From the IMG/VR virus record IMGVR_UViG_2939121850_000005: DNA of 20,990 nucleotides. The stretch is one strand, 5' to 3'. Both the position numbers and the translations under genes were made by a program. This DNA is from a virus (Duplodnaviria; Heunggongvirae; Uroviricota; Caudoviricetes). Shown piece after piece: positions 2,776 to 19,891 of this stretch. The notes under the pieces were generated by a model. The model ran no database searches, had not been told where the DNA came from, and worked only from the letters and a program-made list of their open reading frames with translations. How positions within the stretch are numbered: position 1 is the stretch's first letter; each line of letters begins with the position of its first letter.

Positions 2776-2855
2776 GTTGCCTGAAATTTAAGCTGTTTAA
2801 AATCATGATGTTAGAAAAACTGTTTTTTAACGATGGCGACAAAATGGCGGCGGCG

Positions 2856-3074
2856 TCAAAGAGAGAGCGCCACCTGTCCTGATTTAATTGGATGCGGCTG
2901 AACCGGATTTGACTCTTTTGGCGTTGCAATCGAACGAACAAAAGTTTCATGGGTAACAAAAGTATGGCTGCAGTTAATGTTCTGGCACTGGTTGTAACGC
3001 TCTTTGGTCAATGAAGATACCTGAAAACTGCTGCGAGTATGGGCGGCACTTCCACACAGTGGGCAAATCATCAT
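2856..3074 (-). CDS. ogr: Ogr/Delta-family zinc-finger late-gene activator
   Basis: 72 aa from the MMICPLCGS start (P2 Ogr is 72 aa); Cys pairs CPLC...CQNINC; GGGGAG about 10 nt upstream; lies at the prophage end as in P2. Confidence 0.8.
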   Translation of the reverse strand: MMICPLCGSAAHTRSSFQVSSLTKERYNQCQNINCSHTFVTHETFVRSIATPKESNPVQPHPIKSGQVALSL

Positions 3075-3255
3075 TTTTCGAGTTCTCCCCATTTTTGCTA
3101 AATTCACAATAATGATACCGCATTATTCCATTTTGCAAACTTAAAAGTTCTCCATTGCGAAGAATCATTCCATTTCGAAATCATCAATCCTCACTTCAAG
3201 CTCCAGACTGGTCGTAAAACCGTTATCCGGGCTGACGGTATGCGTCAGAGTCGTA

Positions 3256-4734
3256 ATGGTCCATTCCGCATCATCTAACGAAGCTGACTTAAACCCTAAC
3301 GTCGCCAACCGCAACAAAGGCCCGCGCCGTCAGCCGGAAAAGAATGTCTTCACCGATGAACAGATTGAGAAGCTGGAAGAAATCTTCCATTCCTCCATGT
3401 TCAACTACCAGCGCCACTGGTGGGAAGCCGGAAAAACCAACCGCATCCGCAACCTGCTGAAGTCACGCCAGATCGGCGCGACCTTTTACTTTGCCCGTGA
3501 AGCCCTGATTGACGCCCTGCTTACCGGACGTAACCAGATTTTCCTTTCCGCCAGTAAGGCACAGGCCCACGTCTTTAAGCAGTACATCATCGACTTCGCC
3601 AAAGAAGTGGATGTGGAACTGAAAGGCGATCCGATGGTGCTTCCTAACGGGGCCACGCTTTACTTCCTCGGCACCAATGCCCGCACGGCCCAGAGTTATC
3701 ACGGCAACCTGTATCTGGATGAATATTTCTGGATACCGAAATTTCAGGAGCTACGCAAAGTGGCTTCCGGTATGGCTATTCACAAGAAATGGCGGCAGAC
3801 CTATTTTTCCACACCATCCAGCCTGACCCACAGTGCTTATCCGTTCTGGTCCGGTGCGCTGTTCAACCGTGGACGCAACAAAGCCGACAAGGTGGACATT
3901 GATCTGTCCCACAGCAATCTGGCCCCCGGCCTGCTGTGCGCTGACGGGCAATACCGCCAGATAGTCACCGTGGAAGATGCGGTGCGCGGCGGCTGTAACC
4001 TGTTCGACCTTGACCAGTTGCGCATGGAATACAGCCCGGACGAATACCAGAACCTGCTGATGTGCGAGTTTGTGGACGATCTCGCGTCCGTGTTCCCGCT
4101 CAGCGAACTACAGGCGTGCATGGTGGACAGTTGGGAAGTCTGGACCGACTTTCATGCACTGGCGCTGCGCCCGTTTGGCTGGCGCGAAGTGTGGATCGGT
4201 TATGACCCGGCAAAAGGTACGCAGAACGGCGACAGCGCCGGATGCGTGGTGGTGGCACCGCCAGCCGTGCCGGGCGGTAAGTTCCGCATTCTTGAGCGTC
4301 ACCAGTGGCGCGGGATGGACTTCCGCGCCCAGGCTGACGCCATCAAAAAACTGACTGAACAGTACAACGTGACATACATCGGTATCGACTCAACCGGCGT
4401 CGGTCACGGGGTTTACGAGAACGTGAAAGCGTTTTTTCCTGCCGTCCGGGAGTTTGTCTACAACCCCAACGTTAAAAATGCCCTGGTACTCAAGGCCTAC
4501 GACATTATCAGTCACCGCCGTCTGGAGTTTGACGCCGGACACACCGACATAGCGCAGTCATTTATGGCAATTCGTCGCGCCACCACCGCCAGCGGCAACC
4601 GCCCGACCTATGAAGCCAGCCGCAGCGAAGAAGCCAGCCATGCCGATCTGGCGTGGGCAACAATGCACGCACTGTTTAACGAGCCGCTGCAGGGCGAGTC
4701 CGCCAATACCAGCAATATTGTGGAGATTTTTTGA
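3256..4734 (+). CDS. P: Terminase ATPase subunit (P2 gpP family), possibly N-terminally truncated
   Basis: 492-aa ORF; Walker-A-like KSRQIGATF and Walker-B-like LYLDEYFW, then a nuclease-like C-terminal half; about 100 aa shorter than P2 gpP as I recall it; stop overlaps the Q start. Confidence 0.75.
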   Translation: MVHSASSNEADLNPNVANRNKGPRRQPEKNVFTDEQIEKLEEIFHSSMFNYQRHWWEAGKTNRIRNLLKSRQIGATFYFAREALIDALLTGRNQIFLSASKAQAHVFKQYIIDFAKEVDVELKGDPMVLPNGATLYFLGTNARTAQSYHGNLYLDEYFWIPKFQELRKVASGMAIHKKWRQTYFSTPSSLTHSAYPFWSGALFNRGRNKADKVDIDLSHSNLAPGLLCADGQYRQIVTVEDAVRGGCNLFDLDQLRMEYSPDEYQNLLMCEFVDDLASVFPLSELQACMVDSWEVWTDFHALALRPFGWREVWIGYDPAKGTQNGDSAGCVVVAPPAVPGGKFRILERHQWRGMDFRAQADAIKKLTEQYNVTYIGIDSTGVGHGVYENVKAFFPAVREFVYNPNVKNALVLKAYDIISHRRLEFDAGHTDIAQSFMAIRRATTASGNRPTYEASRSEEASHADLAWATMHALFNEPLQGESANTSNIVEIF

Positions 4735-5762
4735 TGGGAAAGAGTAAGAAGAACCGCGCTGTGTCGACGAACCAGATTCAGCATAAAAGCCAGACTTCAG
4801 CCGAAGCATTCAGCTTTGGCGATCCCGTTCCTGTTCTGGACCGCCGCGAACTGCTGGACTATGTGGAATGCGTACAGACAGATCGCTGGTATGAGCCGCC
4901 AGTGAGTTTTGACGGACTGGCGCGAACCTTCCGCGCTGCCGTGCATCACAGTTCACCAATTGCGGTGAAATGCAACATTCTGACCAGTACCTACATCCCT
5001 CACCCGCTTCTCAGCCAGCAGGCTTTTTCACGTTTTGTGCAGGACTATCTGGTATTTGGTAACGCTTACCTGGAGAAACGCACGAACCGGTTCGGTGAAG
5101 TTATCGCCCTTGAGCCTGCTCTGGCAAAATACACCCGACGTGGGTTAGACCTGGATACCTACTGGTTTGTGCAATACGGTATGACAACCCAGCCGTATCA
5201 GTTCACGAAAGGCAGCATCTTTCATCTGATGGAACCGGATATCAACCAGGAGATCTACGGCCTGCCCGGTTATCTTTCTGCTATTCCGTCAGCCCTGCTC
5301 AACGAGTCCGCCACGTTGTTCCGCCGTAAGTATTACATTAACGGCAGCCATGCAGGCTTCATCATGTATATGACCGATGCCGCGCAAAACCAAGAGGATG
5401 TGAACAACCTCCGCAACGCGATGAAAAGCGCCAAAGGTCCGGGCAACTTCCGCAACCTGTTTATGTACTCGCCTAACGGCAAAAAGGACGGGCTTCAGAT
5501 TATCCCGTTGTCAGAGGTCGCAGCGAAGGATGAGTTTTTGAATATCAAGAACGTGAGCCGGGACGACATGATGGCGGCACACCGCGTGCCGCCGCAAATG
5601 ATGGGGATAATGCCGAATAATGTTGGGGGTTTTGGGGATGTGGAAAAGGCTAGTAAAGTCTTTGTCCGAAATGAATTAATTCCGTTACAAAAAAGGCTTA
5701 TAGAAATTAATACTTGGCTAAATGAAAAAATCATAGCATTTAATGATTACTCATTAAATTAG
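4734..5762 (+). CDS. Q: Portal protein (P2 gpQ family), 3' end recoded by AT-rich DNA
   Basis: ATG at 4734 overlaps the P stop (TGATG) with GGAGA upstream; 342 aa; base composition falls from about 53% to 27% GC near 5640 within the last 40 codons. Confidence 0.75.
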   Translation: MGKSKKNRAVSTNQIQHKSQTSAEAFSFGDPVPVLDRRELLDYVECVQTDRWYEPPVSFDGLARTFRAAVHHSSPIAVKCNILTSTYIPHPLLSQQAFSRFVQDYLVFGNAYLEKRTNRFGEVIALEPALAKYTRRGLDLDTYWFVQYGMTTQPYQFTKGSIFHLMEPDINQEIYGLPGYLSAIPSALLNESATLFRRKYYINGSHAGFIMYMTDAAQNQEDVNNLRNAMKSAKGPGNFRNLFMYSPNGKKDGLQIIPLSEVAAKDEFLNIKNVSRDDMMAAHRVPPQMMGIMPNNVGGFGDVEKASKVFVRNELIPLQKRLIEINTWLNEKIIAFNDYSLN

Positions 5763-5792: not shown

Positions 5793-7445
5793 TCACAAAA
5801 ATCGCCTTACACGCATTTTATTAATCGCAGATTCATCTCCAATTCTTATCAAGGCATCCCTTGCCTTTTTCCCTATACGATTCATTCTATCAGAACCATT
5901 ACTAAAATTTCCGAATTTAAGCGCCGTAGCTATTATTGAATCACCACCATCAAGAATGACATTTTTAAATAATTGATAGTAGTCATCTACTGAAGCAGCA
6001 TCCAATATTTCCTCATGTCTATCAGACCAACCATTCTGACCTGATAATTTCTTAAGAACATCATATATTGAACCATCAATATTTATAATCTTAGAATAGG
6101 CTTGAATTTTTGACAACAACTCAGTATCTCTTACGGGATGAACATTCACATAAATAGATTGAACATATTCCTTTAGAGCATCGTTACCATAATTAATAAA
6201 CTGTTCAATCAATTCACTCGCCTTAGCATTCTCTCCGAAATCCCTATATAGTCCGACAACATTATCTAAATCACTTGGAGTCACATATTTCATCCCATCA
6301 ACCACCGCTTGATATAGCTTGTCAACAACCTGATTTTGATTGTCATCAAATGAATTATGAAAGAACTGCCATGCCTCAGATAAGGATCCTCGTTTATTAT
6401 CACGCGTAATCTCCTCATTCCTTAGGCTTATTTGTCTTTGGAAACTGCTCTTATCAAGATAGCCATATCTAACCATATCAATAAGAACCTCATCAAGATC
6501 ATTCGTTTTTCTATATCCATATTTAAGCAAGGTATTAAGCCAGACTTTCTCATGGCCTTCTTCCTTGTCATTATAAGTATATATATTCCTCACTCCCCTA
6601 ATATATTCTAGTGATGGCACATCTCCCTCTGGAGAAAATCCGTAATGGCTCCAACAATACAGAGTTAATGAATGCGCAACTTCATTTGAAATTGTCTCAA
6701 CATCACCTATAATATTTGGTGTTAAGGACACGAAAAAACGTTCTATCTTTTTTAAGATTCGAATATTCTTGATACCTAAAGAAATGGAATATTTACTTAA
6801 CAAGTTATAAACATGAGAATCACCTTTATAGGCTATATCTGCGCATTCTTCTGGTGTTGGATTGTAAGTGATATCTCTATCAATGACCTTTTCTTTATAA
6901 GTAGAATAATCCTCCATACTAGCTGTGCCATTGTTAAGCAATAGAACCACCTTACAATCCTTCTGCTCTTTTAATAGAGATACTAGCCCTAAAACATCTT
7001 TAACATCTAAATTTTTGCCACGCCTTTCTAAGTCATCTATTACTACAATCATTTTAGAAACGGTCAGAAATGACATTGCTTCAAGTGTCGTAGAGAAGTT
7101 TTTTACAACAGGAACTTCTTTTAACAAACCTGCTGCTTTTCGAGAAAATGATTCAAAAAGTCCACTTGCGTTTGTTGTTGCTGTCTCCAAATCAGGTTTA
7201 TTTCCAATATATTCCTTTGTAATTGCATTCTCAAAAATAGAATACTTTAAAGAATCTAGTGAATTTATACCAAAAAGAGAGACATAACTATATCTATTAA
7301 ATGCAACCTTATCTTTATTATCTTTTAGGAACGTATTCCAAGTATAGGTTTTACCAATTCCCCATTCACCCTGTATAGCCATTACTTCTGGTTCTGTAGA
7401 TGAGATAAAATCTGACAACTGTTCTTTGATAAACTCTAAGGACAT
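5793..7445 (-). CDS. KAP-family P-loop NTPase (candidate defence cargo)
   Basis: 551 aa from the ATG at 7445 (GGAGAA upstream; the six-frame track extends it to 7637); Walker A GEWGIGKT (nt 7347..7370) and KAP-type VVIDDLERR motif; about 33% GC. Confidence 0.7.
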   Translation of the reverse strand: MSLEFIKEQLSDFISSTEPEVMAIQGEWGIGKTYTWNTFLKDNKDKVAFNRYSYVSLFGINSLDSLKYSIFENAITKEYIGNKPDLETATTNASGLFESFSRKAAGLLKEVPVVKNFSTTLEAMSFLTVSKMIVVIDDLERRGKNLDVKDVLGLVSLLKEQKDCKVVLLLNNGTASMEDYSTYKEKVIDRDITYNPTPEECADIAYKGDSHVYNLLSKYSISLGIKNIRILKKIERFFVSLTPNIIGDVETISNEVAHSLTLYCWSHYGFSPEGDVPSLEYIRGVRNIYTYNDKEEGHEKVWLNTLLKYGYRKTNDLDEVLIDMVRYGYLDKSSFQRQISLRNEEITRDNKRGSLSEAWQFFHNSFDDNQNQVVDKLYQAVVDGMKYVTPSDLDNVVGLYRDFGENAKASELIEQFINYGNDALKEYVQSIYVNVHPVRDTELLSKIQAYSKIINIDGSIYDVLKKLSGQNGWSDRHEEILDAASVDDYYQLFKNVILDGGDSIIATALKFGNFSNGSDRMNRIGKKARDALIRIGDESAINKMRVRRFL

Positions 7446-7573
7446 GTGTTTTCTCCTAGAAAGATAGCCCCGTATTATAACCCTAGAATTATAAAAGTAA
7501 TGAGCGCGCGCTCGTATCCCCGCCACGCCTGCCCGCTTTATGTAGTGTTTTTCATGCACCTGCATGACATAGG

Positions 7574-7599
7574 CAAAAGCCCGCCAGTTATGACGGGCC
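7574..7599 (-). terminator. Intrinsic terminator downstream of the 883-aa gene
   Basis: Stem gcccg / cgggc with a 10-nt loop at 7579..7598, followed on the minus strand by CTTTTG. Confidence 0.45.
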
Positions 7600-7735
7600 T
7601 CAGCATAAAAGATCCCTAAACGATCATGCGTTTTCATGCAGCATAGTTATGCAGGACTATCTATACATCGACAATCTCAGCTTGACCTCATCAGTCGACA
7701 TCAATCTATATGTCGAGTAACTTGACAGGAACCAT

Positions 7736-10387
7736 TCATTGATCCACAAGAGATAAACTAATCTTTTGCTCAACAGCGTTGAAATCGTTCTCTATACGCA
7801 CCCATAGTACTTTACCTTTGGAATACTCATTCATACGGTTAAAACCTGCAGGCAGTTTTGATTTATGTATTAACCCTGTAATTTTTCCTGTAAAGTTAAC
7901 AAAAACACCATATCTATGATCGCAATTCCGTACAGTACCTTCTAATATATCACCTGACTGATACCTAGCTTCGAACTCTGCCCATTCAGGATCGCGTATC
8001 TTTTCCGCAAATGACTTAACAGCATCAATTGCAGGTTGGATATCAGTTAGCCCGTGATATTCATCTCCAGAAATAAATTCGCCTGAAAAACTTGCTATCG
8101 TTTCACGTTGATTTACAAGAAAATCAACTAACTCCTTAGCATTAGCACTAACCATTTCTTTATTATACTGATTTTGAACTGACCCCATCCTTTCAGAGAC
8201 TCTTCTGGCAATTTGCTCAGTAGGGAAAAGAGTATCTTCTGCTAACGCGGCTAGATAGCTAATATTTGAGAGCATATCCAAATGCACAAACCCAGCCGAG
8301 GATAATCTTAGTAAGTCTTCATCAGTTATTCCAGTCTCTCTAAAATCCTCTGAAACTAAACATTGCCCCTGAAGTAAATAATCGACCTCACGAGTTATAA
8401 CCTTTGGAGAAAAACCAAACTTGACTAATCCGTTTTTTAACGCAAACAAAGGAAAGTATCCTTTAAGTCCAGTTGGACCACTTACCCCAAAATTATTATA
8501 GAACCATTTCAAAATTGCAAACCTAGTAAAATGATTAGCCCTCTCATCATCTTTTTCCGTCGAAAATATATTTTTAAGGTATGAGTTATCGCTATCATAA
8601 AATCGACGATTTAATCGTAATAACACTCTGGTCACAATATGTAAAGGAAGCGCATAGCGTCCTTCACTTTGCCTTATTTTTAAAAACTCACCTTCAGTAA
8701 TATGCCCACTAGTGCAGAACTCCAAGAAAATTTCCAAAGCCCTTCGTATATTTCTTCCTGAAAGACCAACAATCATCCTTCTTATTTGTGCATCATGTAC
8801 AAAAATAGAGTTTGCGATTGATGTTAAATAATATGAACGTTCGTCCTTGCTATATTCAACATTAAAGCCGTTAGGAAGTGAATATGAAAGAGTATTGCTA
8901 GCACTAGTTTTTGTCATTTCTTTAAGAACAAGCTGCACTCTTGAATGAAGAACATAATTAAACAACGGTGGTTCAATACGGAAAACCATATCTTTTAAAG
9001 CGGTGTCAAGAGGAGGACGATCTCTATAATTATCATAAGTTTCTTCTCTCAAGGGAAGAATTATTAGTGATCTAAACTCATTTTGGAGCCATTGAGCAGC
9101 CTGAAACATTAGCAACTGTTCAGACAAAGTTCTTTTATCACAATTATCAAGAACTATTACAACTAATTTACCGCGCTCTGTCCCACAATACCGAGTATAG
9201 GCAAGTGCAGTTTCATGTAAATCTGACTTACATTCCCTAATAATTTTAAACAATTCCTTATTATATTCATCCCCAGAAAGTAATTGCCCCTCCCCCTTAT
9301 TAAACTTATTTATCTCAACAGAATAGAGTTTTTTTAAATTATCCAACAAATCAAAATCAATATCTGGGTAAGCTAACTTACATTGTTGAATTATTTTCCC
9401 TCTAAGCCAATCATAAACTTCCCCTGAAGAAACCGGGGATTCATTCATATTAAAACGTAACCAAAGAGTGGTTTTAATAATATCATTTGGGAGCGCGACT
9501 TCTTTTAAATGATCAATGAAAGTTGTTTTTCCTGAACCAACACTGCCAACAATCAATAAAATTTTATTTTCAAGCGGAGATCGCCCTCTAAATTTTTCAA
9601 TTATTTCTTTGGGATTATCAGTATCTTCAATTAATTTAGAATCACTATTGCTTACTGGTTGAGCAGCCCTGATAATTTTATCTATTGGCTGGGTATAGCG
9701 GTCCCTGCGCTTAGATGAAATATACCCTTCACGAGCGATAAACTGTCGATCATTCAGTGTATTTGGATTAAATATATTTCCATACTCTGATATAAGTGTT
9801 GCACCAAAACTATTATGCCCCACCTCTTCGTTCTGAGCTGCCTTCCCTCCCATCATTCTCCTAGGCTTCCAGAATTTTCTAGGTTTTGATTTAGCTATGA
9901 ATTCCTCAGATAATTTCGAGAGAGCTGTAAACGAAAATTCCTCTAAAAAATTTGCACAATTTTTATCAACAGGTGATATCTCATTTAATCGGTAACTACC
10001 CTGGTTATTATCCCATTCCCCCGCAAGCCACTCATATCCATCAGTAGCTATGATTTTGGTAAGAGGATTCATACCACTCTCATATTTTGCATTCAACTCT
10101 AGCGCATATAATCGTGCTTCCTGAAAAGCGCTATCTAAATCCTCTCCAGGAGTTTTTGCTTCTACTAGTAATACAGGAACACCATTTATAATTACAAGAT
10201 AGTCTGGATAATATATTTTTTTGGTACTACCTTTACCTATCTCTAAGCTTTTAATATTTCTTTTAGTGAGTATATACTCTTTATTTATGCCAAGCCCATC
10301 AACAGATTTCTTAGTCAGAAACGGATAAATTATTTTTTGTTCGATATCACTTTCTGTTTCCTTTACTTTATTTATCTTACTACTCAT
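7736..10387 (-). CDS. Multidomain protein: restriction-endonuclease-like PD-(D/E)xK motif, P-loop NTPase and C-terminal S1/OB domain (candidate defence cargo)
   Basis: 883 aa; YPDYLVIINGVPVLLVEAK (aa 60-78); Walker A GSVGSGKTT (nt 9521..9547); Walker B VVIVLDNCD (aa 409-417); S1-like signature GDILEGTVRNCDHRYGVFVNFTGKITGLIHKSKL...GKVLWVRIEN in the last 75 aa; AAGGA RBS; about 33% GC. Confidence 0.75.
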   Translation of the reverse strand: MSSKINKVKETESDIEQKIIYPFLTKKSVDGLGINKEYILTKRNIKSLEIGKGSTKKIYYPDYLVIINGVPVLLVEAKTPGEDLDSAFQEARLYALELNAKYESGMNPLTKIIATDGYEWLAGEWDNNQGSYRLNEISPVDKNCANFLEEFSFTALSKLSEEFIAKSKPRKFWKPRRMMGGKAAQNEEVGHNSFGATLISEYGNIFNPNTLNDRQFIAREGYISSKRRDRYTQPIDKIIRAAQPVSNSDSKLIEDTDNPKEIIEKFRGRSPLENKILLIVGSVGSGKTTFIDHLKEVALPNDIIKTTLWLRFNMNESPVSSGEVYDWLRGKIIQQCKLAYPDIDFDLLDNLKKLYSVEINKFNKGEGQLLSGDEYNKELFKIIRECKSDLHETALAYTRYCGTERGKLVVIVLDNCDKRTLSEQLLMFQAAQWLQNEFRSLIILPLREETYDNYRDRPPLDTALKDMVFRIEPPLFNYVLHSRVQLVLKEMTKTSASNTLSYSLPNGFNVEYSKDERSYYLTSIANSIFVHDAQIRRMIVGLSGRNIRRALEIFLEFCTSGHITEGEFLKIRQSEGRYALPLHIVTRVLLRLNRRFYDSDNSYLKNIFSTEKDDERANHFTRFAILKWFYNNFGVSGPTGLKGYFPLFALKNGLVKFGFSPKVITREVDYLLQGQCLVSEDFRETGITDEDLLRLSSAGFVHLDMLSNISYLAALAEDTLFPTEQIARRVSERMGSVQNQYNKEMVSANAKELVDFLVNQRETIASFSGEFISGDEYHGLTDIQPAIDAVKSFAEKIRDPEWAEFEARYQSGDILEGTVRNCDHRYGVFVNFTGKITGLIHKSKLPAGFNRMNEYSKGKVLWVRIENDFNAVEQKISLSLVDQ

Positions 10388-10400
10388 ACTCTAGTCCTTA

Positions 10401-10434
10401 TCAAACCAAAAGGCACTTAATTTCTTAAGTGCCT
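10401..10434 (-). terminator. Terminator-like hairpin in the leader of the 883-aa gene
   Basis: Perfect 10-bp stem aggcacttaa / ttaagtgcct with a 4-nt loop, followed on the minus strand by TTTGGTTTG, about 15 nt upstream of the RBS. Confidence 0.4.
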
Positions 10435-10896: not shown

Positions 10897-11085
10897 TTAA
10901 CTGGAAACTTCCGTTGACCGGCTGTATTCATGGCTGCGAATTTTCGCCATCAGCTCGTCTGTCAGTTCGGACACCCACTGGATAGCCAGCCGCTTTTCTT
11001 CGTCGCTGCACTCACTAGCCGCTACAAGCTTGATAAAAAAATCAATACGCTGAAGCTTCAATGACTCCAAAAGATAGTCCTGCAT
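10897..11085 (-). CDS. Small hypothetical protein (62 aa) downstream of a LexA box
   Basis: ATG at 11085 preceded by AGGAGG with a 4-nt spacer (MQDYLLESLKLQRIDFF...); identity not recognised. Confidence 0.45.
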   Translation of the reverse strand: MQDYLLESLKLQRIDFFIKLVAASECSDEEKRLAIQWVSELTDELMAKIRSHEYSRSTEVSS

Positions 11086-11133
11086 CTTCCCTCCTATCAT
11101 TACACGGATACACAAAAACTGTATATACACCCA

Positions 11134-11149
11134 CTGTTTATATAAACAG
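11134..11149. promoter_or_regulatory. LexA (SOS) box CTGTTTATATAAACAG
   Basis: Perfect palindromic CTGT-N8-ACAG about 50 nt upstream of the small ORF on the minus strand; TATAAT directly adjacent on the plus strand; a weaker CTGTATATAC half-box lies at 11119. Confidence 0.5.
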
Positions 11150-11243
11150 TATAATAGGAACAGAAAAATGTAAAACTGTTTTTTGTCAGTTAATTGGATG
11201 TACTGATGTCGGTCAATAAAGCACAAAATGTTAAACAGCAGCC

Positions 11244-13637
11244 TTAGTACCATTGACGCCATTTGTCATCTTCCTGCAGCCTCTGGTTACGGTAAAAAAT
11301 ACGTAAACCGGCACCGGATGGAATGCTGCCGCCACGCAGAAGCAAATCAATCTCAGATGCACTACCTTCAAACCCCCTGGTTGTCAGTTCTGCCTCAAGC
11401 TGCAGGCGCTGCTGCTCCAAAATACTCTGTATGTATGCTTTTTTCCGCTTCGGTTTTACCAGTCTCAACCTGGCTGTCAGCTCCCGCCGTTCCTTCTGGC
11501 CCATGTTGTGGAGATATTCCTGCAGCTCCTTCTCATCCATGGTTTTAATATCGGGTAAATCACCCCCTGATTTGTTCAGATTTTCAACAGGGGGACAGTT
11601 ATTGCCACGAGTCCAAGGGGCGCAAGCGCCCTGGTCGGCTGCCGCCTCCTGAACGTCAACGGCTTTACGAACCATTTTCCACTTCACTGCATGAGTGCAG
11701 ATCTTGCCCTCTGCAATGGGTGACCAGATGCCATAAATACGAATGCCATGATCGCCATAGGCGGTCGGCTCTTCGTTGATTTCATAAGCGGTTCTGATGA
11801 GGTGATATTTACGGGGAACCAGTACGCCGCCCTGCTTCATGATGTAGGTGGCAAAACAACCAGCATCAGCAGCAGCCAGAATGGCATCAAGACGCGGGTT
11901 ATCCAGTACCGGCGCACCTGCTTTTTTGTCACCCTGTTGCCTTGCCGCCTGACCAGCCAGCAAGCGAAGTTCACGGTAAGCCTGACGCCCCGGAATACCA
12001 AAGAAGCGGAATTGCTGAACACGATGCAGAGACGCCCAGGCATTCACGTATTCAGCGTTATCACGCAGAGATTTACCCGTTTCCTTGCTGATCTCGCCAG
12101 CCAGACCACGACCGTCAATGTTCTTACTGATATATTTCGCGATGTAGCTTGTCGGCGTTCCTTTGCGCGGGTTAATCAACTCAGACTTAAAGCGCGGCCC
12201 AGTGTTATTGCCCAGCTCCTCGCGGTCTTCACGGATGGCAAACTTACGCAGTAATGCAGTGATGGCACGGCGGTCTTTTTTGCGCATGAAACACAACAGG
12301 TGCCAGTGAACTGTGCCATCATGATGCGGCTCAGCCACCCGCACGCCATACCAGCGCAACCCGGCTTTGTGCATCGCCTTACGAAATGCAGCAAACATAC
12401 CGACCAGATAATCGCTGCTTTGTCTTACCGTCGCGTTTGTCCAGGTCGGGTTTGGTCTGCCGTTATTTAGCGTGGAATGGAAACGCGACGGACAGGTGAT
12501 AGTGTAGAAAACGGCGCAGTCACCGCGCATTTCCGCGATAAGCTCCAGACCTTTAACACAGGCCATCATCTCATTGCGGCGATGCGCAGGGTTGCTGCTG
12601 CTGGCGTTTACCACATCCTCCATGTCCAGCGTGTCGCCGTCTTCGTTCACCAGTTCATGAGAACGGAAAAACTCCAGCGACTTACGACGCTGCTCACGTT
12701 TATGCATCACGGCTTCATAGCTGACATAAGGAGATGCTTTTTTGCTGACCAGGCAAACAGCGCGCAACTGCTCTTCCCGCCATTCGCAACGCATCTTCCA
12801 TAATTTCCGATACCACCAGTCGGCGCACAACATACGCGCCAGCGAACCCGGAATGAGTTCATAGGGCACGGGTTTACGGCGGTTTCTTTTCCGACGGAGT
12901 TGCTCAAACGCAGGTGGGATGACATCCAGACGCAGGGTTTCCGCTGCCACCTTTTCCCATGTCTTGCGGATTTCTTCTGGCTTAACGTCATCGGTGGCAT
13001 ACAAATCACCACAAGCTGCATCAAGGCACATACTCATATGCGCAGCTACCAGGGTGGAAAGGCGTTTCACCTGATCCTGACTCATTTCAGGCAGGATCAG
13101 CAGGCCGTCCAGCCCTTCATGGCTTGCCATAAAGCGAAAAGATGCAGATAGCTGACTGTCGCGTACATGCTCCAGTCGTTCCAGACATGGCTTAATCGTC
13201 TCACGTAAATAGCGGGAATAAGCCTTTGGCCTGCCCAGGCTGCTGAAGTATTCAATACGTTGCATCAGCGGCTTGCTGATATGGGAAGGCTGGGCGTTGA
13301 CGTCCGCCAGAATGACCATGTCTGAATTAAAACGCTGCTGCTCATGCGCCAGCTTTGCCCGGCTAATGAGCTTATCCTGCTCCATTTCGCGCTGGACAGG
13401 ATCACGTGATTCATTAAAGAAATAACGCTCCCAGACCTGATCACTCAGTGCCTCGCGGCGCAACTGTTCCTGCTCGTTATCGGCAGCGTACAGAGTGATC
13501 AGGTTTGAAAGCGTAGAAACCGGCGCAACTTCCGCCGGGTCCAGATAAGGGTTAATGGCCTTTTTCGGGCTGTTCCATGAGAATGCTGCGGCAGCCTCGT
13601 TAAAGCCGCAGCAGTTGTTCATATCGGCATGACTCAT
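11244..13637 (-). CDS. A: Replication initiation endonuclease (P2 gpA family, HUH rolling-circle Rep)
   Basis: 797 aa; HUH motif [10 protein letters not shown] and double-tyrosine motif [13 protein letters not shown]; GGAG RBS; ATGA overlap with the upstream dam stop. Confidence 0.8.
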
Positions 13638-16630: not shown

Positions 16631-17566
16631 ATGTCAACACATGAAATCACATTTCGCCATGTGGACGAAAAAAAGAAATCCTTAATCATGCAGAATCGCG
16701 GAGGGCAATCGGTTATAGATCGGATACTGAAAGCCTATGGTTTTTCTTCCCGACAAGCATTCTGTAATCACCTAGGTATATCGCAAAGTACAATGGCGAA
16801 CAGGTATGCCCGTGACACTTTCCCTGCTGATTGGGTTGTTATCTGTAGCATGGAGACTGGAGTGCCGGTCGAGTGGTTGGCATTTGGCACTGATACCGAG
16901 AAGGGAAGCATTACAAATAATGCAGAAAAAAGTCACAACAATTGTGACAGCAAGCATCAACATCTCAATAGAGAACAAGACATCCAAAATGAGAACTCTT
17001 TTACTATTAACCAAGGTGGAAAAGCAGCAATAGAGCGAATCGTTTTGGCTTATGGATTTAAGACAAGACAAGCTTTAGCTGATCATATTGGTGTATCAAA
17101 AAGTACATTAGCCAATCGTTACATGAGAGATACCTTTCCTGCTGACTGGATTATTCAATGCTCACTGGAAACCGGTGCTTCATTAACATGGCTAACCACT
17201 GGTAACGGGGCAATGTTTGAAAAGCCTCGAAACGATACTATCACTATCCCATATCATAAAATAATTGATGGATCTCTTGCTCAAGAAACCTTCTTGACTT
17301 TTGACTCTAAGTTGTTAGAAGGAACCTTTCTGCAACCTTTAGCAGTATTCATTGATGAGGAAATATATATTGTAGAATCAAAATTTAATGAAGTTACTGA
17401 TGGCAAGTGGCTTGTGAATATTGAAGGGAAAATAAGTATCAAAGATTTGACTCGCATACCCGTTGGTATGGTTAAAGTTGTAGGCACTAACGCAAGTTTT
17501 GAATGCTTACTTACTGACATTATCGTTTTGGCAAAATGTAAAAGAGTTTTTACTAAAAATGTATAA
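16631..17566 (+). CDS. CI-like repressor with tandemly duplicated HTH domain (186 CI-type)
   Basis: 311 aa; two about 64-aa repeats (aa 24-87 and 129-192, about 60% identical) each with an HTH-like core (ILKAYGFSSRQAFCNHLGISQSTMANRY / IVLAYGFKTRQALADHIGVSKSTLANRY); about 37% GC; start codon uncertain (no clear SD). Confidence 0.6.
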   Translation: MSTHEITFRHVDEKKKSLIMQNRGGQSVIDRILKAYGFSSRQAFCNHLGISQSTMANRYARDTFPADWVVICSMETGVPVEWLAFGTDTEKGSITNNAEKSHNNCDSKHQHLNREQDIQNENSFTINQGGKAAIERIVLAYGFKTRQALADHIGVSKSTLANRYMRDTFPADWIIQCSLETGASLTWLTTGNGAMFEKPRNDTITIPYHKIIDGSLAQETFLTFDSKLLEGTFLQPLAVFIDEEIYIVESKFNEVTDGKWLVNIEGKISIKDLTRIPVGMVKVVGTNASFECLLTDIIVLAKCKRVFTKNV

Positions 17567-17577
17567 AGAGAAACATC

Positions 17578-18522
17578 ATGACTGAACCAACCAATAAAGA
17601 TAGCGAAATAAAAAAACACCTATTAGAATTTCTTGATTCACAGTCTGAAAATATAGCAAAACACTTCTACTCTCATATAAAAGACTTAATAGAAGCAGGA
17701 GAGCTTTCTGAAGCTCATAATAACCTAGCGCTAATTGAAAAATACATAACTAGGCCACCGATGGATGAAGAACCCAATATAAATGAAAATAAAGCCAATA
17801 AAAGAAAAAATGTAAAATCACTTGAACCTAATAATTATGTAGAACATATAATACAATTAGAAGAACGAAACAGCATATTAACTCTACAGTTAGAGCATTA
17901 TACTCAGGATCTTAATAGAAAAAACGCAATAATCGAAAACAACGTAAAACAAATTAATTCATTGATTAGTGAAAATAAGGAACTCCGTAGCCAAGTACAG
18001 CAACAAAGAATCGATGATAAAATCCCCACCTATGTTAACGATGTTAAATCAGATCTTGGTAGTGATGACAAACATTTTATATTGATGTCTATTATCTGGT
18101 CTATTGCAGGGGTATTTTTTGGCTTCCTTGCAGTAGTATCTGCTTTTTTTACATTATACATGAACTTAGATTTAAAAAATCTCACTAACCTTCAGTTAAT
18201 ATATATCTTCACGCGAGGATTAGTTGGAATCGCCATTCTTTCATGGCTATCATATATCTGCCTTAGTAACTCAAAAAAGTACACACATGAATCGATCAGG
18301 CGAAAAGATCGTCGACATGCTTTGATGTTTGGTCAAGTTTTTTTGCAGATATACGGTTCTACAGCAACTAAAGAGGATGCAATAGAAGTCTTTAAGGATT
18401 GGAATATTTCAGGTGACTCTGCATTTTCAGGTCAGACAGAGCAACCACCGAGTTTTGCGTCATTTTTGAATACAATCAAAGACAAAGTTAAAGTAACTGG
18501 AAGTGATAAAGAAACAGATTAA
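17578..18522 (+). CDS. Coiled-coil / two-TM membrane protein of unknown function (candidate exclusion or abortive-infection moron)
   Basis: 314 aa starting 11 nt after the CI-like stop; charged coiled-coil N-terminal half and two hydrophobic helices (FILMSIIWSIAGVFFGFLAVVSAFF, GLVGIAILSWLSYICL); strongly AT-rich. Confidence 0.6.
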   Translation: MTEPTNKDSEIKKHLLEFLDSQSENIAKHFYSHIKDLIEAGELSEAHNNLALIEKYITRPPMDEEPNINENKANKRKNVKSLEPNNYVEHIIQLEERNSILTLQLEHYTQDLNRKNAIIENNVKQINSLISENKELRSQVQQQRIDDKIPTYVNDVKSDLGSDDKHFILMSIIWSIAGVFFGFLAVVSAFFTLYMNLDLKNLTNLQLIYIFTRGLVGIAILSWLSYICLSNSKKYTHESIRRKDRRHALMFGQVFLQIYGSTATKEDAIEVFKDWNISGDSAFSGQTEQPPSFASFLNTIKDKVKVTGSDKETD

Positions 18523-18575: not shown

Positions 18576-19891
18576 GGGTCTTCCCTTGTTGTGGTGGCTG
18601 AAGGCATGATAATGGTGTATTTAATCGCCAGAGGTCACCGCCATGGACGAAAAGTCCCTCTACGCTCATATTCTCAACCTGTCCGATCCGTGGCAGGTAA
18701 AGTCCCTTTCTCTCGATGAAAATGCCGGTTCTGTTACTGTCACTATTGAGATCGCTGAAAACACCCGGCTAGCCTGTCCGACCTGCGGTAAATCCTGTTC
18801 TGTTCACGATCACCGTCATCGTAAATGGCGCCATCTTGATACCTGCCAGTTCACCACTATTGTTGAAGCCGATGTTCCACGAATTATGTGTCCGGAGCAT
18901 GGCTGCCTGACGTTGCCTGTTCCGTGGGCTGGCCCCGGAAGCCGGTATACGTTGCTATTCGAATCGTTCGTTCTCTCATGGCTGAAAATCAGCACCGTTG
19001 ATGCTGTCAGGAAGCAACTTAAGCTCAGTTGGAATGCGGTTGACGGCATTATGACCCGGGCAGTTAAGCGAGGTCTTGCCCGGATAAAAAAGCCATTATC
19101 CGCCCGTCATATGAATGTGGATGAGGTCGCCTTTAAAAAAGGACATCGTTACATAACGGTGATCTCCGATCGCGATGGTCGGGCGCTGGCCTTAACGGAT
19201 GATCGCGGCACAGAGAGTCTTGCCGGCTATCTTCGCACGCTCACTGATGGGCAGTTGCTGGCTATCAAAACGCTCTCAATGGACATGAACGCGGGCTATA
19301 TAAGAGCAGCGCGTATCTACTTACCCAGTGCGGTTGAGAAAATCGCCTTTGACCGCTTCCATGTGGCGAAGCAACTGGGCGAGGTAGTTGATAAAACCCG
19401 TCAGAATGAACATCCGCACCTCCCTGTTGAAAGCCGACACCAGGCAAAAGGAACCCGCTTCCTGTGGCAGTACAGCGATAAGTGGATGACCGAATCCCGG
19501 CAGGAAAAGCTGATGTGGCTGCGTGCACAGATGAAGCTGACGAGCCAGTGCTGGGCGCTGAAAGAGCTGGCAAAGGATATCTGGAACAGGCCATGGAGCG
19601 AGGAAAGACGGAGTGACTGGCAGAGATGGTTGGCGCTGGCGGCTAACAGTGACGTTCCCATGATGAAAAATGCCGCGAAAACGATAGGAAAAAGGCTGTA
19701 CGGGATCCTGAATGCGATGCGACACAGTGTCTCAAACGGAAATGCGGAGGCACTTAACAGCAAGATCAGGCTGCTGAGGATAAAAGCCAGGGGATACCGA
19801 AACCGGGAGCGCTTTAAACTGGGGGTGATGTTCCACTACGGAAAGCTGAATATGGCGTTCTGAGCCTTCCCACCATGATCGGGGAAGACCC
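18576..19891 (+). mobile_element. ISL3-family insertion sequence (1316 bp)
   Basis: Imperfect terminal inverted repeats beginning GGGTCTTCCC at both ends (left 18576..18604; right 19864..19891, reverse complement); one transposase ORF; flanked by an 8-bp direct repeat. Confidence 0.75.
18643..19863 (+). CDS. ISL3-family transposase
   Basis: 406 aa; N-terminal Cys/His zinc-finger (CPTCGKSC...CPEHGC), DDE-type core, C-terminal SNGNAEALNSKIRLLRIKARGYRNRERF typical of ISL3 transposases; GAGGT RBS. Confidence 0.75.
   Translation: MDEKSLYAHILNLSDPWQVKSLSLDENAGSVTVTIEIAENTRLACPTCGKSCSVHDHRHRKWRHLDTCQFTTIVEADVPRIMCPEHGCLTLPVPWAGPGSRYTLLFESFVLSWLKISTVDAVRKQLKLSWNAVDGIMTRAVKRGLARIKKPLSARHMNVDEVAFKKGHRYITVISDRDGRALALTDDRGTESLAGYLRTLTDGQLLAIKTLSMDMNAGYIRAARIYLPSAVEKIAFDRFHVAKQLGEVVDKTRQNEHPHLPVESRHQAKGTRFLWQYSDKWMTESRQEKLMWLRAQMKLTSQCWALKELAKDIWNRPWSEERRSDWQRWLALAANSDVPMMKNAAKTIGKRLYGILNAMRHSVSNGNAEALNSKIRLLRIKARGYRNRERFKLGVMFHYGKLNMAF

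Follow-up and report, generated by a model that had tools for sequence, protein, structure and literature searches.

Innate immune detection of infection by bacteria is only partly understood, and to our knowledge the single-chain nucleoside triphosphatase (NTPase) receptors that have been studied mostly sense phage proteins, with direct sensing of phage RNA outside CRISPR in few cases. The virus record IMGVR_UViG_2939121850_000005 (20,990 nucleotides, referred to here as the window) carries a gene for an 883-amino acid (aa) protein, WP_001678413.1 in RefSeq, and raises the question of what is done by a single chain in which an earlier note, made from the sequence alone, had noticed a restriction endonuclease-like motif, a P-loop NTPase and a C-terminal S1 domain. 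The analyses revealed a widely conserved single-gene module located in the defence hotspot of P2-like prophages. The product is very probably an anti-phage protein, a role that is predicted, and RNA may be its cue.

The gene is an 883-codon open reading frame on the minus strand, with its ATG at 10387 and its stop codon at 7736-7738; the plus-strand reading of the same interval is full of stops. The peptides quoted in the earlier note were all found in the translation as numbered (YPDYLVIINGVPVLLVEAK, aa 60-78; GSVGSGKTT, aa 281-289; VVIVLDNCD, aa 409-417), and the S1-like tail was present at aa ~809-883. Pfam matches above cutoff were obtained for HSDR_N (33.2 bits against 25.1) and S1 (30.0 bits against 22), and the AAA matches over the P-loop region were all sub-threshold. 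The structure was predicted by alignment-based AlphaFold (single-sequence AlphaFold gave a predicted local distance difference test score, pLDDT, of 35 and was not used), and the structural check set beforehand placed the N-terminal motif within a PD-(D/E)xK fold and the C-terminus in an OB/S1 fold. Pfam, the structure model and Foldseek thus showed all three domain calls to be correct, and the observation of a nuclease-NTPase-S1 protein is confirmed. Compared with the S1 class (PF00575), the tail has the five-stranded OB fold, the S1 signature and the nucleic acid-binding residues; compared with the ORC/Cdc6-type structural class, the modelled chain has the AAA+ core with Walker A and B, the helical lid and the C-terminal winged helix. 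Foldseek matches included Cdc6/Orc1, CED-4, Dark/Apaf-1 and NRC3, with NLRP3 and ZAR1 also among the fold matches, and structural matching ranked ORC/Cdc6 and BrxC slightly above STAND proteins. The BFVD structural search returned single-domain matches only, and PHROG 14719, a family of unknown function, covers aa 9-765 (E 5.7e-162).

The residues expected for catalysis and ATP binding were invariant across 107 homologs: P61, D62, E76 and K78 of the nuclease, G281, G284, G286, K287 and T289 of Walker A, and D414, N415, D417 and K418 of Walker B, as well as P445 and R447. Conservation is highest in the NTPase, lid and linker (entropy 1.1-1.3 bits), and the lowest entropy in the protein (0.44-0.49 bits) was found in the SGRNIRRALEIF block of the lid. 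Read by eye, this block and 'VFRIEPP' may correspond to the sensor-2 and box VII regions of Cdc6/ORC, R455 would lie at the arginine-finger position, and 'GRNIRRAL' (R547/R548) would fit a sensor-2 arginine. The linker (mean entropy 1.28 bits) has many invariant residues, is arginine-rich (KPRR, GG, QNEE, GHNxFGA, FNP, RRxRY, PID) and has low pLDDT at aa 231-247; it could be a nucleic acid-binding arm or an autoinhibitory latch. The stalk and S1 domain are the most variable regions (2.3-2.5 bits; stalk 2.45 bits). The canonical nucleic acid-binding positions of S1 are nevertheless kept (F829 in 98/107 homologs, H841 in 75/107, D/N870 in 96/107 and K/R875 in 105/107), and a search of the family profile against the PDB matched domains 3 and 4 of ribosomal protein bS1 (domain E 2.4e-12).

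To delimit the family, the core (aa 171-720) was searched exhaustively by phmmer against 1.84 billion representatives; 1,077 proteins passed E<=1e-3, and 214 of them also passed E<=1e-30. The start of the core falls at about residue 170-180 in every full-length match. Domain hidden Markov models (HMMs) built from alignment A1 and scanned over 84 full-length representatives showed the same nuclease domain in 84/84, whereas S1 was present in 44. The C-terminal domain is absent in about 30 (770-860 aa), several others of S1-class length have different C-terminal content, and in two proteins Pfam placed RRM at the exact position of S1, P0135 having two such domains (94.9 bits) and P0147 a single one (25.2 bits, cutoff 20.7). 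The S1-less representatives all keep PD[YF]...E[AV]K, with ETK in one of them (P0238). In an approximate core tree (rough neighbor-joining, BLOSUM distances, midpoint rooting) a tail-less clade is basal, the derived clade has S1 as its majority state and also contains, in nested positions, the RRM pair and several tail-less forms, and at least nine changes of tail state are needed. The presence of two unrelated folds that bind single-stranded RNA at one position of a fixed chassis argues that binding of RNA, or of single-stranded nucleic acid, is the selected function of the tail.

Tail-less relatives were also found on plasmids of Phaeobacter, Klebsiella (IncF) and Rhizobium; they align over aa 10-777 with 21-28% identity, and no PADLOC model matched them. 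The Klebsiella protein, WP_047062017 (834 aa, L007:4824-7328, annotated as 'hypothetical'), is a distant relative (23% identity over aa 60-610) that many conjugative IncF plasmids of K. pneumoniae carry, and it may represent a branch of the family that resides on plasmids.

Genomic context analyses showed that the gene lies within an island of 34% GC (about 5.5-11 kb) whose flanks have ~50% GC, with replication gene A (11244-13637) and a Dam methylase on one side and the portal gene and a terminase fragment on the other. The window is from E. coli; in the RefSeq annotation of an identical region, ybjL and rcdA flank a 186/P2-like prophage that has decayed. Its gpA-gpQ interval corresponds to the old/tin hotspot of P2-like phages, where old/tin, retrons, restriction-modification (R-M) systems and toxins are otherwise carried (Rousset et al., 2022, PMC9122126). 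Local tblastn over the fetched loci placed the gene between replication gene A and portal gene Q in 14 P2-like loci (51-100% identity), two E. coli copies included, with variable content among the relatives. The 883-aa homolog is the sole large gene of the interval in Providencia (51% identity) and Yersinia (78% identity). Among 5,426 complete E. coli genomes, 109 have the gene, always inside the one prophage island at >=99% identity and with the 883-aa protein 100% identical in all, and orthology to a housekeeping enzyme was not found.

Outside P2-like phages, homologs were observed next to an integrase (Bradyrhizobium, Acidobacteria), at a prophage edge (Acetobacter), beside HigBA (Pseudomonas), directly after an R-M pair consisting of a helicase-type R subunit and a fused methyltransferase/specificity gene (Nitrosospira), after lambda P in a lambdoid phage, and after a D5-type primase. 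This stand-alone occurrence in varied contexts indicates that the module is self-contained and travels from one accessory slot of mobile elements to another. No match was found by tblastn against the INPHARED phage genomes; the family was seen in prophages and IMG/VR contigs. In two P2-like loci another cargo gene follows the S1-nuclease gene in the hotspot, encoding a 408-aa RES-domain protein (L018:10870-12096) or a 227-aa protein without family match (L021:11055-11738); both are further candidate conflict genes.

The protein is uncharacterized, unnamed and outside PADLOC, yet it is already catalogued and computationally predicted to be defensive. Table S5 of Rousset et al. (2022, PMC9122126) lists the gene together with the neighboring KAP-family NTPase gene as one arrangement, and the accessions are absent from the cloned and tested systems of Table S2. 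DefensePredictor (Science 2026, PMC13092281) lists WP_001678413.1 in Table S10, sheet 'uncharacterized_clusters', with a mean log-odds of 13.05 (minimum 11.1, maximum 16.1) against a strict cutoff of 4, as predicted_defensive TRUE, defense_homolog FALSE and 'Predicted novel defense gene'; it is not among the cloned or validated units of that study. Literature searches by accession, S1, RRM, STAND and anti-phage found no characterization, a 2026 preprint on P2/P4 hotspots does not list the protein, and the terms S1, OB-fold and P2-like do not occur in the Avs survey preprint (PMC12803255). The architecture, which the earlier note did not recognize, was thus fairly called unfamiliar in that no PADLOC model matches it, but the gene itself had been catalogued and predicted before.

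We consider that there is about an even chance that the gene encodes a self-contained, single-polypeptide protein against phages (or mobile elements), carried as cargo of the cos-proximal hotspot of P2-like phages and built as a fixed chassis with a variable tail, whose nuclease fires on RNA-cued assembly. In the chassis, the N-terminal HsdR-type PD-(D/E)xK nuclease would be the effector, and the ORC/Cdc6/STAND-like AAA+ NTPase with its lid would be a nucleotide-dependent switch or oligomerizer, followed by the winged helix; the tail would be the helical stalk ending in a domain that binds single-stranded RNA (S1 here, RRM or none in relatives). In the uninfected cell the protein would be a compact, inactive monomer. 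Upon infection, the S1 tail and winged helix, which would together supply the infection cue or the targeting, are proposed to bind a nucleic acid specific to infection, with phage RNA, or a transcription or replication intermediate that bears RNA, as the likeliest candidate. This engagement would license ATP-dependent assembly of the AAA+ modules, and the nuclease domains, so brought together, would cleave DNA, which would stop the phage and might kill the cell. A bolder form of this proposal, which we put forward tentatively, is an innate, non-CRISPR immune receptor that reads phage RNA, its plug-in S1 or RRM domain, mounted on a helical stalk, allowing the ORC/Cdc6-like AAA+ switch to assemble and to set off the restriction-type DNA nuclease.

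Several observations weigh against RNA-cued defence. As the chassis is complete in the tail-less forms, the tail is an accessory and not the sole sensor, and the effector swapping of Avs/NLR families was looked for in the 84 representatives and none was found. By sequence, the NTPase has no solved relative, with no ORC/Cdc6 match at E<=10 for the profile against the PDB, and the putative oligomerization, arginine-finger and sensor-2 assignments come from motifs read by eye. PADLOC has no defence model that matches the 883-aa protein or five relatives, the only hits being P-loop-only matches at E>=5e-4 (mad3, AriA, PtuA), and neither of the two papers that list the gene (PMC9122126, PMC13092281) assayed its activity. 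One homolog, L012, has no recognizable mobile-element or defence neighbors, and the E. coli copy, residing in a decayed prophage, could be a passenger.

The earlier note's interpretation was partly supported. Its view of a sensor-effector protein is plausible, being backed by the P2 defence hotspot, the mobile-element borders and the machine-learning defence prediction. RNA guidance, in turn, found no support: an Rfam scan of the island at E<=1 gave nothing, for which reason the idea was dropped; no conserved non-coding partner was seen, since the non-coding stretches upstream and downstream differ in length between homologs (60 bp at the shortest, over 800 bp at the longest); and S1-less relatives exist. 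RNA targeting is the less likely reading. According to it, the S1 or RRM tail would deliver an RNA substrate to a PD-(D/E)xK domain acting as an ATP-regulated RNase, and infection would be aborted by degradation of phage or host transcripts, tRNA or rRNA; we regard this as unlikely.

Somewhat lower we place a restriction-like, NTP-dependent nuclease, in which foreign or modified DNA would be recognized directly by the winged helix and AAA+ module, the S1 domain would only help to tether the enzyme to transcripts or single-stranded regions, and the cell would not be killed. The HsdR-type nuclease, the BrxC/ORC-like NTPase and the winged helix are all present, the Nitrosospira homolog directly follows R-M genes, and the S1-less members show that the tail is dispensable. 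Against this, a cognate methyltransferase is lacking in the window and most loci; HsdM/HsdS neighbors were found neither in the window, where the neighbors are the KAP NTPase and a 62-aa open reading frame, nor in 12 context loci, except for L009, which has its own complete R subunit. The chain has no SF2 or McrB-type motor either, since Pfam gave no ResIII or Helicase_C match for an SF2 helicase/translocase and the fold of aa 261-560 is AAA+. Direct DNA recognition also leaves both self/non-self discrimination and the repeated gain of RNA-binding folds unexplained.

An improbable alternative is an Avs/NLR-like protein sensor, in which the C-terminal half would recognize a conserved protein of the phage and S1 would lure phage factors directed at ribosomal S1; binding would then trigger STAND-type oligomerization and nuclease activation. 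The order N-effector, NTPase, C-sensor matches, as do the folds of CED-4, Apaf-1/Dark, NRC3, NLRP3 and ZAR1 and sub-threshold Pfam matches to nSTAND5/3/6, NACHT and NB-ARC; domains 3 and 4 of bS1 are the closest to the S1 domain here, and T4 proteins are reported to interact with host S1 (PMC9409239). The replacement of S1 by RRM, however, argues against mimicry specific to ribosomal S1, and the idea of S1 as a decoy of that protein is weakened accordingly.

A non-defence role is very improbable. The protein would then be either an accessory or replication factor of the phage, as an ORC/Cdc6-like initiator with a nuclease beside gpA, or a selfish addiction module that stabilizes the element. 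The gene has replication gene A as its neighbor in P2-like phages and lies beside lambda P or a D5 primase in other contexts, its NTPase has an ORC/Cdc6-like fold, and it has been kept in a prophage remnant stripped of all structural genes. On the other side, ~1,260 E. coli records match the flanking P2 genes only, so that the gene, present in 109 genomes, is not part of the phage core; the slot otherwise holds the known conflict cargo named above, the gene occurs outside phages, and its defence log-odds are high.

The least credible alternative, largely rejected, is a two-gene system in which the 883-aa protein functions only with the KAP-family NTPase downstream: the two genes are on the same strand with a 98-bp gap, occur together in all 109 E. 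coli genomes and form one arrangement in Rousset et al. (2022), but these copies are one island, and the full KAP gene was absent from every non-E. coli locus examined (12 other P2-like hotspots and 8 non-P2 contexts). It is on this genomic context that KAP was rejected as an obligate partner. The KAP gene (5793-7637, minus strand; WP_023147874, 614 aa) matches a single-gene PADLOC candidate of its own, PDC-S49 (7e-28), and PHROG 4740, and its first ~46 aa match a separate PHROG (28685). In other P2-like phages tblastn found, at most, a 26-45-aa remnant resembling the KAP N-terminus downstream of the gene, which suggests that recombination placed the KAP gene within a small reading frame already present there and so made its N-terminus chimeric. 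A small reading frame between the gene and the portal was also rejected as partner, as none is conserved.

Coordinates of the gene, its parts and the upstream hairpin are collected in Table 1. The hairpin, AGGCACTTAA-gaaa-TTAAGTGCCT followed by TTTGGTTT, sits at the end of a 510-bp AT-rich intergenic region and could be a terminator insulating the gene from read-through of the gpA operon, an operator, or an element of the 5' untranslated region.

Table 1. Features of the nuclease-NTPase-S1 gene and its upstream region, in positions of the window.
Feature	Position	Strand	Extent or basis
Complete nuclease-NTPase-S1 gene, 883 aa, RefSeq WP_001678413.1	7736..10387	-	Open reading frame list, translation, RefSeq annotation
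HsdR-N-type PD-(D/E)xK nuclease domain, presumed effector	9878..10387	-	aa 1-170
Catalytic motif P-D62 ... E76-A-K78	10154..10207	-	aa 61-78; invariant residues
Conserved basic linker (KPRR, GG, QNEE, FNP, RRxR, PID), without fold assignment	9608..9877	-	aa 171-260; entropy, pLDDT
AAA+ (ORC/Cdc6/BrxC/STAND-like) P-loop NTPase core	8963..9607	-	aa 261-475
Walker A GSVGSGKTT	9521..9547	-	aa 281-289; invariant residues
Walker B VVIVLDNCDK	9134..9163	-	aa 409-418; invariant residues, strand 408-414 in model
Helical lid with conserved 'SGRNIRRALEIF' motif	8708..8962	-	aa 476-560; helices 476-558 in model
Helical region and MarR-like winged-helix domain (~641-720)	8228..8707	-	aa 561-720
Long helical stalk	7964..8227	-	aa 721-808; helices 724-768, 784-797, 800-808 in model
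S1 (OB-fold) single-stranded nucleic acid-binding domain	7739..7963	-	aa 809-883
Perfect hairpin with 10-bp stem and T-run	10411..10434	-	Terminator-like scan and sequence reading; 23 nt upstream of ATG

In the RefSeq view the prophage consists of ogr, a gpD fragment fused to a terminase fragment, the portal gene, the KAP NTPase (WP_023147874), WP_001678413, a 62-aa open reading frame (WP_001376441), gpA, Dam, CII, CI, a low-GC hypothetical gene, ISKox3 and the integrase. At ~2850-5762 (RefSeq view L033:8357-11263) the fragment of late-control gpD directly adjoins a terminase truncated at its N-terminus (492 aa, compared with ~590 aa), and all capsid, tail and lysis genes have therefore been deleted; the genes for regulation, replication and hotspot cargo are intact in the remnant. 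The 121-aa reading frame listed mechanically at 10897-11262 is really the 62-aa gene WP_001376441 (10897-11085, minus strand), with the RefSeq start at an internal ATG; only aa 60-121 of the longer frame match PHROG 698, a common small gene on the gpA side of the hotspot. The CI repressor frame at 16631-17566 (plus strand) is long (311 aa as a frame and 292 aa in RefSeq, against ~191 aa in a Yersinia relative) and has two Phage_CI_repr helix-turn-helix stretches, which suggests that its N-terminal DNA-binding region is duplicated or extended. The gene at 17578-18522 (plus strand) has no convincing family match, with a weak DUF996 match only, and may be cargo of another variable slot in 186/P2-like phages. 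The ISKox3 copy adjoins the integrase (18643-19863).

If the proposal of RNA-cued defence is true, the family would add a new RNA-sensing branch to single-chain nuclease-NTPase immunity, one that temperate phages spread as a means of excluding competitors. Among the many genes predicted to be defensive, this one is distinguished by the natural S1/RRM domain swap, which makes the RNA role directly testable with chimeras; the family is a compact, single-gene test case in which an RNA-binding module has been repeatedly added, exchanged (S1 for RRM) or removed. Because temperate phages carry the gene in several genera of Enterobacterales (Escherichia, Providencia and Yersinia among them), it may influence susceptibility to phages, a point that matters for phage therapy. 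A finding that the protein is inactive or redundant would still calibrate machine-learning defence predictions.

In comparison with known systems, the gene shares with the P2 old/tin cargo and other P2-hotspot systems (Rousset et al., 2022) the gpA-gpQ slot, the low GC and the variable cargo; Old (an ABC ATPase-Toprim protein) and Tin are unrelated to it in sequence, and the gene is not among the systems cloned and tested in that study (Table S2). With HsdR the sole shared part is the N-terminal HSDR_N-type PD-(D/E)xK nuclease: HsdR has an SF2 motor and HsdM/HsdS partners, whereas the 883-aa protein has an AAA+ module at the position of the motor and no partners, and its RefSeq name is a domain label and not a function. 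As judged from the model, the AAA+ module with lid and winged helix is shared with ORC/Cdc6 and BREX BrxC, which the NTPase resembles at least as much as it does STAND proteins, but there is no detectable sequence likeness, and here the module is fused to a nuclease and an RNA-binding domain, with no BREX partner genes or replication-origin role. S1 domains are known from bS1 (domains 3-4), PNPase, RNase R and Tex; here a single S1 stands at the end of a helical stalk on a nuclease-NTPase and is interchangeable with RRM or absent in relatives.

Avs proteins with Mrr/PD-(D/E)xK effectors (e.g., Avs3/Avs4) and NLR-like proteins are alike in being a single chain with an N-terminal nuclease, a P-loop NTPase with lid and winged helix, and a variable C-terminus, and in being carried on prophages, satellites and defence islands; there is also the fold-level likeness to CED-4, Apaf-1, NRC3, NLRP3 and ZAR1. 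They differ in that the 883-aa protein has no PADLOC Avs/NLR match and all Pfam STAND models are below cutoff, in that searches for TPR-like or other repeat sensors gave no repeat-family match (beyond the lid, the model shows a winged helix, an 88-aa stalk and a 75-aa S1), and in that the effector is never exchanged in the family (84/84). By analogy, the protein would work most like the effector-NTPase-sensor proteins of the Avs/NLR type, but it fails the features of defence HMM, repeat sensor and effector exchange. CoCoNuT systems (PMC11090510), which are McrBC-related type IV systems with cold-shock/OB-fold domains and for which RNA involvement was predicted from architecture alone, likewise combine an NTPase, a PD-(D/E)xK-type nuclease and an OB-fold RNA binder on coiled-coil or stalk-like helices. 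They are multi-gene, with an McrB-type GTPase, an McrC nuclease, extensive coiled coils, and HEPN or other RNases, whereas here a single gene has an ORC/STAND-like NTPase and an HsdR-type nuclease, and no Pfam or PADLOC match to McrB, AAA_5 or McrC was found in the 883-aa protein. CoCoNuT, itself also only predicted, is the nearest conceptual precedent for an OB-fold RNA binder mounted on an NTPase-nuclease system.

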